A model generated the notes under the pieces. The model was not told where the DNA came from. It did no database searches and saw nothing but the letters and a program-made list of their open reading frames with translations. Shown piece after piece: positions 8,426 to 9,773 of a stretch of DNA of 64,000 bases (position 1 is the stretch's first letter; every line of letters starts with the position of its first letter). The stretch is from an uncultured Gammaproteobacteria bacterium. Its GTDB lineage: Bacteria; Pseudomonadota; Gammaproteobacteria; CAZDOC01. The stretch lies in NCBI GenBank assembly GCA_964506945.1, contig CAZDOC010000009.1, positions 3,048 through 67,047 on the forward strand, read 5' to 3'. The position numbers were made by a program, and so were the translations under genes.

Positions 8426-9105
8426 AGGCCACCCCCGTGTGCAGGTGCGCCGGTGCTGGCCAGTTTGTCCTGCAGCCGGGTGAGCAGGGCCTGGATGTCC
8501 TGGCGCCGGCCCCGATCGGCCAGGGGCCGGTGCTTGCGCGGGGCCGCCCTGCGCGCGCGTTCGGCATATTTCTTCGCCTGGATGTAATCCCCCTGTTCAT
8601 ACAGATAGTCGGCATAGAAGTAGTTCGGGTCGATGCCATCCGGATTGATGCTCAGGGCCTTCTTCAGGTATGCGCCGGCCTTGTCGTCGTCGCCAAAGCC
8701 GATGGGCCAGCCCGGGACCTTGTAATACAGGCTGCCGAGTGAGGTGTAGATGGAGCCCTTGAGCGCCCGGGGATCGATGCCCTCGGCCCGTTGCAGCAGT
8801 TTGCGCGCGGCCTTGGCCTTGCCGAGGGCGCCCAGGCCGCCGACCACACCGGCCTCGGTGCTGAGGATGATGGCCTTCCAGACCAGGGGCTCGGCGCGTT
8901 GCGGATAGTCGCCGGCGAGCCTGTCGGCCTGTTTGACCAGCTTGTCGAAGGCCTGCTCCTGTGACGCCTCCGGGGTCGCGTAGTTGGCTCGCGCCCAGCC
9001 CTGTTGCAGTTGCAGCAGGGCCTCCGGCAGGGGCGTGGCGGCGCTGGCCAGCGCGGGCACGATATTCAGCAGAAAACAGGACAGGCTTACGGTCAGGGTC
9101 TTCAT
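8416..9105 (-). CDS. secreted TPR-repeat protein
   Basis: Signal peptide (cleavage ...ALASA|ATP) followed by TPR-like helical repeats. 4-bp overlap with the upstream gene. Confidence 0.6.
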   Translation of the reverse strand: MKTLTVSLSCFLLNIVPALASAATPLPEALLQLQQGWARANYATPEASQEQAFDKLVKQADRLAGDYPQRAEPLVWKAIILSTEAGVVGGLGALGKAKAARKLLQRAEGIDPRALKGSIYTSLGSLYYKVPGWPIGFGDDDKAGAYLKKALSINPDGIDPNYFYADYLYEQGDYIQAKKYAERARRAAPRKHRPLADRGRRQDIQALLTRLQDKLASTGAPAHGGGLWN

Positions 9106-9773
9106 GCGGCATCCCTCTCTTTGTCATCGAGTGGCAGGGAACGGAATATGTCCCCATACAGGTGGAAGAACATGCGCGCCGCATGCGTCACCGCGGCGCG
9201 GTCATCGGCCTCGTCGAGGCGGTTCATCAGTTTTTCGTAAAAGCGGATATGCTCCAGGTCCAGTGAGCCGTGCGAGCGCAGGTAGGAAAAGGCAGCATCC
9301 GGCAATCCCAGGTTCTGCTGGATACGATCCGCGGCCTGGGTGGCCAGGGCCACGCTGGTGCCTTCCAGCACCAGCACCATGCCGAACAGGCTGGCCGGGT
9401 TGCCCCGGGCGATACCATCATAGGCATAGGCCACCATCAGCTCGGTGCTCGCGTGTGGCAGGCCGTCGCGGACGGCGTCCGCGTCGCCGCCGGCGGCACG
9501 GATGTCATTCAGGATCCATTCCTGGTGACCGGTCTCTTCCTCGATGTATTCGGCTACCGCCTCGCGCAGCCACTCCAGTCGCGCCGGCAGGCGCGCGCCA
9601 CAGGCCATCAGCAGGGGGACGGTGTGACGGACGTGGTGATAGGCCTCGCCGAGGAAGGCGAGATAGGCCTGCCTGGGGATCTCTCCCCGTATTCCCCGTT
9701 GCAGCGCCGGGGCCTCGAGCATGCGCTCGCGCTCGGCGGCGGTATCGTTGAGCAGCTGTTTATAGAATGCCAT
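9102..9773 (-). CDS. heme-oxygenase-like fold, iron-containing redox enzyme family protein (candidate di-iron HDO/CADD/TenA-like)
   Basis: 223 aa, all-helical. Carries an EEETGHQEW (ExxH) motif and other His/Glu-rich helices typical of the HO-like di-iron family. I took MAFYKQ as the start, which leaves a 14-bp overlap with the ligase stop. Confidence 0.55.
   Translation of the reverse strand: MAFYKQLLNDTAAERERMLEAPALQRGIRGEIPRQAYLAFLGEAYHHVRHTVPLLMACGARLPARLEWLREAVAEYIEEETGHQEWILNDIRAAGGDADAVRDGLPHASTELMVAYAYDGIARGNPASLFGMVLVLEGTSVALATQAADRIQQNLGLPDAAFSYLRSHGSLDLEHIRFYEKLMNRLDEADDRAAVTHAARMFFHLYGDIFRSLPLDDKERDAA

Follow-up and report, generated by a model that had tools for sequence, protein, structure and literature searches.

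A candidate heme-oxygenase-like dimetal oxidase coupled to an acid-activating ligase in a widespread five-gene cassette of Proteobacteria

Introduction

Which substrate would be oxidised by a heme-oxygenase-like protein whose gene lies in an operon with an adenylate-forming ligase and a protein annotated as a hemolysin? This question is raised by a gene at positions 9102-9773 of a 64,000-nucleotide stretch of DNA (hereafter the window, i.e., the whole stretch analysed), which derives from an uncultured Gammaproteobacteria bacterium (contig CAZDOC010000009.1 of assembly GCA_964506945.1, positions 3,048 to 67,047). In an original prediction, made from the sequence alone, the gene product was described as an all-helical protein of 223 aa belonging to the heme-oxygenase-like di-iron oxidase superfamily and paired with an adenylating enzyme and an acyltransferase-like protein. 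In the current study, we have followed up this prediction, and the reading that we favour, and consider rather probable, is that of a heme-oxygenase-like dimetal oxidase (HDO) that works on the activated product of the ligase.

HDOs are defined by a set of three His and three carboxylate ligands (3-His/3-carboxylate) on three core helices of a seven-helix bundle, and a reaction has been assigned to only about a dozen among more than 10,000 predictions (PMC13108848). Nearly every HDO that has been characterised revealed chemistry new to di-iron enzymes. The subfamily described here is a practical target for such work, as it is abundant (at least 594 species), highly conserved and found with its partners attached. 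Work on this HDO would also settle the role of the Vibrio "thermostable hemolysin" (delta-VPH/Dth), which is still listed in databases as a virulence factor.

Reading frame and family assignment

The gene in question is the following:

9102..9773, minus strand: candidate heme-oxygenase-like dimetal oxidase (HDO), 223 aa, recognised by PF14518, an AlphaFold2 (AF2) model, Foldseek and ligand alignment

The coordinates given in the original prediction are correct, and the strand, which was not stated there, was supplied by the analysis of the open reading frames (ORFs): the plus-strand frame across 9102-9773 is riddled with stops and the minus strand is open. Translation from the ATG at 9773..9771 to the TGA at 9104..9102 yields a product of 223 aa (MAFYKQLL...KERDAA). 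The same product was obtained when genes were called independently on the metagenome contig of origin (JGI 3300023440). A start at another ATG in the same frame, at 9848 inside the upstream gene, would lengthen the ORF to 248 aa; this longer frame was rejected and the start at 9773 preferred, because M-x-F-Y is the N-terminus in all orthologues aligned and the independent gene call agrees. The AF2 model of the HDO consists of helices only (mean pLDDT 90.1, pTM 0.86), so that both the length and the all-helical architecture are as foreseen.

The HDO belongs by sequence to the Pfam family PF14518, which is named Haem_oxygenas_2 or "iron-containing redox enzyme". With a cut-off of 28.9 bits, the HDO reaches 112.7 bits (E 2.2e-32) over profile positions 2-176 of 177, with the same result on the source contig, and more than 8000 homologues were recovered in a homologue search; chance can hardly account for such a match. 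Among solved structures, 3DDE is the sole significant match to the single sequence. A profile built from 20 diverse sequences of the family (down to 32% identity) and searched against the PDB retrieved 3DDE (1e-28), CADD (3e-12), a second p-aminobenzoate (pABA) synthase, 9PJ4 (3e-6), the Pseudomonas syringae UndA homologue 3OQL (6e-5), UndA itself (9e-4), MboA (5e-3) and AetD (0.04). The Foldseek search with the HDO model gave a similar order, with 3DDE first (template-modelling score, TM, 0.82), followed by CADD (TM 0.81-0.82, root-mean-square deviation, rmsd, 2.6 A) and by 3OQL and UndA (TM 0.69-0.73), with a probability of 1.00 for 3DDE, CADD and UndA, and with heme oxygenases and TenA thiaminases ranking lower at 10-17% identity. 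The AF2 model and these matches recover the seven-helix heme-oxygenase-like bundle. The PF14518 match, the PDB profile matches and the Foldseek results thus all bear out the proposed placement in the heme-oxygenase-like di-iron superfamily, and the structural comparison puts the HDO nearest to 3DDE, CADD and UndA-type proteins.

We consider it very likely that the window protein is an HDO-type, dimetal, O2-activating metalloenzyme. This class assignment is correct but not new, as public annotation already names the protein class; our result confirms that annotation and reveals no new kind of system, and it points to a good target for the assignment of a function.

The best match in both sequence and fold, 3DDE, is a structural-genomics entry with a heme oxygenase-like fold (Sden_3740 of Shewanella denitrificans). 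It shares with the HDO the E-E-x-G-H, E and H-x3-D-x2-H motifs and a Y-H-x-x-K-H helix, but it is about 22% identical and hence not an orthologue. Since 3DDE is itself without an assigned function, the match carries no information on the chemistry of the HDO.

The putative metal-binding site

The candidate ligands of the HDO are E80, H83, E137, H168, D172 and H175, of which the last three lie within the motif SHGSLDLEH. Together with E79, they are invariant in 23 orthologues of 59-90% identity, and the six ligands are also invariant in the diverse set of 20 sequences (down to 32% identity). Of 59 full-length representatives of clusters at 50% identity, 43 retain all six residues (EHEHDH). In the HMMER alignment, E80-x-x-H83 falls on the E-x-x-H of 3OQL and E137 on its Glu, while H168, D172 and H175 fall on the H-x3-D-x2-H of 3OQL and on H174, D178 and H181 of CADD, and E137 on E142 of CADD. 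A six-ligand, 3-His/3-carboxylate set is therefore present by alignment, residue for residue with the UndA homologue and in five of six positions with CADD. The geometry of the site is inferred from these alignments, and the site would bind two metal ions (Fe2 or Fe/Mn) and activate O2.

Two of the motifs singled out in the original prediction need to be qualified. The motif EEETGHQEW (residues 78-86) does hold the E-x-x-H pair, but not on one continuous helix, as the helix in the model breaks at T81-G82, between E80 and H83. Of the further His and Glu residues that had been pointed out there, LDLEH (residues 171-175) supplies D172 and H175, whereas YHHVRH (residues 45-50) is located on an earlier helix and is outside the canonical six. 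Its residues H46, H47 and H50 (window positions ~9624-9638, minus strand) are on the helix preceding the first ligand helix; H46 is kept in 56 of the 59 representatives, including those without metal ligands, H47 in 45 and H50 in 47.

Three observations on the site count against this assignment. The third ligand helix of the HDO model is broken at residues 169-172; on the favourable side, the lower pLDDT and the helix break inside HxxxDxxH agree with the flexible core helix alpha-3 of apo HDOs (PMC13108848). H83 does not align with the second His of CADD (H88), and its equivalence there rests on the UndA-type E-x-x-H. Besides, degenerate ligand sets, e.g., EHKQYH and QRAHGR, are present in 16 of the 59 representatives (among them P0149, P0152, P0178, P0228 and P0242), which means that part of the wider HDO family may not bind metal and suggests metal-free paralogues within it.

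These ligand-poor members could be taken to mean that the HDO itself binds no metal and lacks oxidase activity, being either a TenA/PqqC-like enzyme or a "TenA family transcriptional regulator". Many HDO orthologues bear the latter name in databases, some relatives have weak PF03070 matches, and TenA thiaminases do appear further down the Foldseek list. However, the window HDO has no PF03070 match at E <= 0.01, none of the six metal ligands varies among its orthologues, the Pfam scan detected no domain for DNA binding, and the thiaminases stand below CADD and the UndA-type proteins in the fold search, so that the HDO does not group with the metal-free TenA thiaminases. We therefore rejected a TenA identity as very improbable; the regulator name appears to be a legacy annotation. 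A canonical heme oxygenase was rejected as well: there is no PF01126 match, and residues 1-44 of the HDO contain no His, so that there is no proximal heme-ligating His. HmuO and HO-1 are merely fold neighbours, at 14-16% identity in Foldseek.

The closest functionally characterised structure is that of CtCADD (CT610) of Chlamydia trachomatis (1RCW, 8VA9, 8VAG), a self-sacrificing Fe/Mn pABA synthase, which shares with the HDO the seven-helix fold and five of six ligands (the first-helix Glu, E142, H174, D178 and H181). A function of the HDO as a CADD-type pABA synthase or another folate-related enzyme could be argued from the rank of CADD as second-best sequence match in the PDB, from its high TM and from a weak match of the HDO to the CADD family in NCBIfam (TIGR04305); a FolB gene also adjoins one distant relative in which an HDO is fused to an enoyl-CoA hydratase. 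On the other hand, the identity is 19%, and the first-helix pair of CtCADD, E81...H88, differs from the one-turn-closer E-x-x-H of the HDO. TIGR04305 scored 25.6 bits against a cut-off of 200. In the alignment, Tyr27 of CADD is matched by Ile or Leu and Lys152 by Ala in the HDO; in CADD, these two residues are the sacrificial residue and the amine donor, respectively (see also PMC9522330). As the sacrificial Tyr and Lys are absent, the HDO is not a CADD-type pABA synthase, and it sits in an operon with a ligase and an acyltransferase rather than among folate genes, none of which accompanies it in the 80 related loci described below. We regard this function as largely refuted.

The other HDOs (SznF, BesC, HrmI, AetD, SktA, FlcD/E, PolF, MboA, RohS) belong to the same superfamily, with MboA and AetD as weak profile matches. 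SznF-type HDOs have a 3-His/4-carboxylate set, in which an additional Glu reaches the metal site, whereas we identified no extra carboxylate ligand in the HDO; there, the additional residues conserved on the preceding helix are histidines (H46, H47 and H50). These enzymes act on amino acids or peptides in natural-product clusters, while the HDO belongs to a widespread, sensor-linked cassette of five genes.

The five-gene cassette and its natural fusions

The HDO gene is the third of five minus-strand genes that overlap at their junctions, in the order T_hemolysin, ligase, HDO, tetratricopeptide repeat (TPR) protein and short-chain dehydrogenase/reductase (SDR). Its four partners are:

11232..11975, minus strand: "thermostable hemolysin" (T_hemolysin, PF12261), 247 aa; PF12261 E 1e-52; ATGA overlap with the ligase start
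9760..11235, minus strand: class I adenylate-forming (AMP-binding) ligase, 491 aa; PF00501 and PF23562; 14-nt overlap with the HDO
8416..9105, minus strand: secreted TPR protein, 229 aa; TPR_19 and TPR_8; ATGA overlap with the HDO stop
7628..8425, minus strand: classical SDR, 265 aa, last gene of the operon; adh_short E 3e-47; GTG start, 10-nt overlap with the TPR gene

A scan with one genome per species returned at least 594 confirmed loci, and the neighbourhoods of the cassette were examined in the best 80 of these, from Zeta-, Beta- and Gammaproteobacteria. Across these three classes the HDO is ~60-70% identical. The ligase precedes the HDO in all 80 loci, and T_hemolysin, SDR and TPR protein are present wherever the contig reaches far enough, the latter two in either order, with the TPR gene conserved beside that of the HDO or of the SDR. 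The bare five-gene cassette is also carried by a conjugative plasmid of Vibrio parahaemolyticus, a mobilisable plasmid of Citrobacter and a plasmid of Pseudoalteromonas, and in Vibrio it corresponds to the "dth" region. Throughout the three proteobacterial classes, and on plasmids too, the five genes are thus passed on together. In Xanthomonas phaseoli (locus L065), T_hemolysin and SDR match as short fragments (5113-5415 and 8118-8468) and ligase, HDO and TPR protein match over most of their length, which may reflect decay of the cassette in this genome.

When 1.84 billion cluster representatives were searched exhaustively, the HDO had 1450 matches at E <= 1e-3, of which 132 reached E <= 1e-30. 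Among the 59 full-length representatives, 19 have at least 600 aa, and in all six representatives of this size that were scanned an AMP-binding domain is fused to the HDO. One such fused ligase-HDO gene has neighbours like those of the window, with T_hemolysin upstream, a kinase and a sigma-54 regulator, and with two unannotated genes at the positions of the porin and the small protein of the window (see below). More distant relatives (P0229 and P0236, ~36% identity) are fused to an enoyl-CoA hydratase (ECH) domain, ECH_1. The HDO is therefore translationally coupled to the ligase in the window and physically fused to it in many relatives, and the pairing with an adenylating enzyme and an acyltransferase-like protein, already noted in the original prediction, is strengthened by these natural fusions. 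The ligase-HDO and ECH-HDO fusions point to a substrate class: the HDO would act on an acid activated by the ligase and probably bound to CoA. No other clue to such an activated acid as the substrate of the HDO is as strong as these fusions.

As to the neighbourhoods of the ECH-HDO fusions (P0236 at 8001-10007 of L086/L087, P0229 at 2677-4494 of L085), one fusion gene is flanked by hybrid sensor kinases and by an MMPL transporter and has a LuxI/LuxR pair nearby, an arrangement that recalls signalling of the diffusible signal factor (DSF) type (RpfF/RpfC). The other stands beside a 265-aa SDR, a FolB homologue and a lipid A acyltransferase homologue.

The fusions also bear on whether the HDO could be an UndA-like oxidative decarboxylase, converting a free fatty acid, or the alpha-carboxylate of an N-acyl amino acid, to a terminal alkene or enamide and CO2. 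UndA, the di-iron 1-undecene synthase of Pseudomonas (4WWJ, 6P5Q; homologue 3OQL), shares the fold and the E-x-x-H, E and H-x3-D-x2-H motifs of the HDO, which align with those of 3OQL, and UndA structures are among the Foldseek matches of the HDO. The operon context of the HDO is of a lipid type, FeeM, an N-acyl amino acid synthase, is among the structural matches of its partner acyltransferase, and oxidative decarboxylation and C–C cleavage are established chemistry for HDOs (PMC13108848). On the other hand, the fold match to UndA is weaker than that to CADD or 3DDE, and UndA is a stand-alone enzyme working on free lauric acid, whereas the HDO occurs together with a ligase. That its relatives are repeatedly fused to an enzyme which activates carboxylates, or to an enoyl-CoA hydratase, speaks for a carboxylate masked as a thioester and against a free one. 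Considering the identity of 14%, the profile E-value of 9e-4 and the ligase that is always coupled or fused, the HDO falls outside the UndA 1-alkene synthase orthologous group, and we consider a decarboxylase of this kind improbable.

Partner proteins

The AF2 model of T_hemolysin, built on a shallow alignment of 10 sequences (pLDDT 85), has the fold of the GCN5-related N-acetyltransferases (GNAT). Its top Foldseek matches are the CoA-dependent acyl-homoserine lactone (AHL) synthases MesI, BjaI and RpaI, the N-acyl amino acid synthase FeeM, and LasI, TofI and EsaI, with E ~5e-5 and a TM of 0.46-0.48 when normalised to the query and 0.53-0.64 when normalised to the target. PF12261 is the sole sequence model matched, with no match to the Autoind_synth, FeeM or Acetyltransf families. 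T_hemolysin is thus predicted to be a GNAT-fold acyltransferase. The LuxI-type synthases and FeeM share with it this type of fold as its top structural matches, but the identity is 10-15% and the TM low; also, there is no LuxR-type receptor near T_hemolysin, where a two-component system is found instead. RpaI- and BjaI-type synthases use CoA-activated acids and work downstream of a CoA ligase. The founding members of PF12261 are delta-VPH and Dth of Vibrio. A GNAT fold close to CoA-dependent LuxI-type synthases and FeeM means that the haemolysis scored for the cloned genes may come from an enzymatic lipid product and not from the protein. Haemolysis from the cloned Vibrio acyltransferase alone goes back to older work, as cited in PMC12208996 and PMC6262041; in the former, the Vibrio cholerae ligase VCA1110 is assigned to a "dth region", where its neighbour is the delta-thermostable haemolysin described by Fallarino et al. 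2002.

The nearest solved relatives of the ligase are MenE, oxalyl-CoA synthetase and FadD13, which makes it a generic class I enzyme of the CoA-ligase type. The SDR contains the TGxxxGIG and YxxxK motifs and matches NCBIfam PRK09072 at 279 bits (cut-off 238); its top PDB match is a (3R)-hydroxyacyl-CoA dehydrogenase, barely ahead of many other SDRs. The TPR protein has an N-terminal sequence like a signal peptide and matches BstC, a component of a sterol transporter, weakly (40 bits, where the cut-off is 350). A lipoprotein was considered and rejected from a reading of the sequence, as the early Cys is not in a lipobox context, and for this reason we call the protein secreted.

Proposed pathway

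Based on these partners, we propose a pathway in which the ligase would activate an organic acid, most likely as the CoA thioester, and the HDO, with two metal ions and O2, would hydroxylate or desaturate the acyl chain. The SDR could then interconvert the resulting hydroxyl and keto group, and the LuxI/FeeM-like acyltransferase would pass the modified acyl group on to an amine. The result would be an amphiphilic N-acyl compound, which the secreted TPR protein may handle in the envelope. Such a product would account for the fact that the acyltransferase gene, when cloned, was initially taken for a "hemolysin". The parts of this scheme differ in strength. That the HDO acts on an acid activated by the upstream ligase, most likely as a CoA thioester, is in our judgement more probable than the alternatives taken together; a fatty acid may be this substrate, as one possibility only. 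A biosynthetic rather than catabolic pathway, with an N-acyl product, is conceivable and somewhat short of an even chance. The specific reaction, hydroxylation or desaturation of an acyl-CoA, is put forward tentatively and is rather doubtful. Should a CoA thioester prove to be the substrate, the chemistry of HDOs would reach past free fatty acids and amino acids.

Several points weigh against an HDO acting on the activated product of the ligase. To our knowledge, no HDO acts on a CoA thioester, and UndA needs a free carboxylate at the metal. The substrates of the characterised HDOs are free fatty acids, amino acids or peptides (PMC13108848), and our search of the full-text literature by operon components, Pfam accessions, Vibrio locus tags and genome mining returned no functional study of this HDO subfamily. 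The ligase has Arg in place of the expected catalytic A10 Lys (...SANGRPRR..., in a crude by-eye tblastn alignment); G-R stands at this position in the window ligase and in ~75 of the 80 orthologues (L001-L080), and G-K in the fused relative P0122, so that the chemistry of the ligase may be atypical. The likeness of T_hemolysin to LuxI and FeeM is modest, as seen from the query TM of 0.46-0.48. Finally, the fusion leaves the order of steps open, as the HDO could precede the ligase or act on the final N-acyl product, and the operon encodes no carrier protein and offers no clue to the acceptor.

A more far-reaching version of this scheme may be formulated, although we consider it unlikely. The cassette would then be an unrecognised and very widespread pathway leading from an acid that is taken up or sensed to an oxidised N-acyl signal or surfactant lipid. 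With a similarly low likelihood, the HDO would be the first of its superfamily to act on a CoA thioester or a ligase-bound adenylate, and, no more probably, the Vibrio "thermostable hemolysin" would be a LuxI/FeeM-like acyltransferase and not a toxin, haemolysis being caused by its lipid product. In this version, the HDO could install a 3-hydroxy group or a 2-ene, the SDR could give the 3-oxo form, and the two-component system would sense the substrate or the product.

Regulation and a possible catabolic role

Upstream of the operon, the window contains the following elements:

12015..12030, minus strand: sigma-54-type -24/-12 promoter-like element, TGGCCCgcttaTTGCT, with one mismatch, ~40 nt upstream of the first operon gene
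12224..12727, minus strand: small secreted protein, 167 aa, from the gene call; linked to the operon in the sigma-54 architecture
12755..13798, minus strand: porin-like outer-membrane protein, 347 aa; weak BBP2 (OmpL-like porin) match
14220..15980, plus strand: sensor histidine kinase with periplasmic dCache_1 domain, 586 aa, from Pfam domains; divergently transcribed
15977..17323, plus strand: NtrC-type sigma-54-dependent response regulator, 448 aa; Response_reg, Sigma54_activat and HTH_8

The sigma-54 architecture of the window is a minority among the related loci and was also found in L076, L078 and L088, which share the NtrC-type regulator pair with the window. The dCache kinase is likewise a partner in L076 and L078, with a similar kinase/regulator pair in L088, and the regulator that adjoins the cassette in L078 is 57% identical. 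The small secreted protein, which has no Pfam or NCBIfam match, co-occurs with the cassette in L019, L076, L078 and L088, and the porin-like protein in L019, L076 and L078, with an unannotated 357-aa gene at the same position in L088; in L019, which shares the porin and the small protein with the window, neither kinase nor regulator was seen. Sigma-54-type elements stand at the same position upstream of T_hemolysin in L088 (TGGCACagggcTTGCC) and in L076 and L078 (TGGCATggcgcTTGCG). Because matches to the relaxed -24/-12 pattern are not enriched above chance across the whole window, the argument for the element rests on its position and conservation. The NtrC-type regulator is the probable activator of the operon, and the dCache kinase together with this regulator would turn on the operon from the sigma-54 promoter. 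A scan of 7300-14300 for sigma-70 promoters and intrinsic terminators gave nothing above chance. Further upstream of TGGCCCgcttaTTGCT, an AT-rich stretch and CTGCA...TGCAG repeats were observed.

In most genomes the cassette is accompanied by another dedicated sensor. Of 51 full-size loci, 42-43 have an OmpR-type response regulator (PmrA/QseB-like) and a kinase resembling QseC/PmrB downstream of the cassette, and 5-7 a cupredoxin and iron-permease pair; taken together with the PmrAB/QseBC-like sensor, the latter pair hints at a link to the sensing of iron or another metal. On a Pseudoalteromonas plasmid (L081, 8462-10255), a cupredoxin-domain protein, an iron permease and a hypothetical protein come after the two-component system.

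These sensors, and the dCache small-molecule sensor kinase, the porin-like protein and the secreted protein linked to the cassette in the window, would also suit an inducible system for the uptake and catabolism or detoxification of an exogenous organic acid, which would leave the identity of the HDO unchanged. In such a system, the porin and a periplasmic protein would import the acid, the ligase would make the CoA ester, the HDO would replace the acyl-CoA dehydrogenase and hydratase by an oxidation that depends on O2, the SDR would make the keto-acyl-CoA, and the GNAT protein would conjugate or dispose of the acyl group. In Pseudomonas alcaligenes AVO110, the orthologues RS08440-RS08460 were up 38- to 389-fold on transfer to exudates of the fungus Rosellinia necatrix, the fadD-like ligase of the cluster was needed for growth in the exudates, and the authors read the cluster as beta-oxidation (PMC8304167). 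The fusion of P0229 and P0236 to an enoyl-CoA hydratase, a beta-oxidation-type enzyme, and, marginally, the top PDB match of the SDR to a hydroxyacyl-CoA dehydrogenase are in line with this. However, a LuxI/FeeM-like acyltransferase and a secreted TPR protein are atypical for catabolic operons, and neither thiolase nor acyl-CoA dehydrogenase nor other downstream catabolic genes are conserved with the cassette in the 80 loci. Haemolysis from the cloned acyltransferase alone, in the older Vibrio work cited in PMC12208996 and PMC6262041, suits a product that is made better than one that is degraded. We regard the catabolic role as a serious but unlikely alternative to an HDO that oxidises the activated product of the ligase on the way to an N-acyl compound.

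Two further reports concern the cassette. The cluster on the plasmid of Pseudoalteromonas carrageenovora has been discussed as a possible virulence locus (PMC6262041), and in an interaction network of V. parahaemolyticus, VP1729 (thermostable hemolysin) and VP1731 (iron-containing redox enzyme) were tied to the sensor VP1735 (PMC10469919).

Directly downstream of the operon, at 5053-7518 on the minus strand, the window encodes an 821-aa membrane protein that by sequence is like a Na+/H+ exchanger, with a C-terminal domain like those binding cyclic nucleotides. It is probably unrelated to the cassette, because only one partial match (36% identity, in L001) was found among the related loci.

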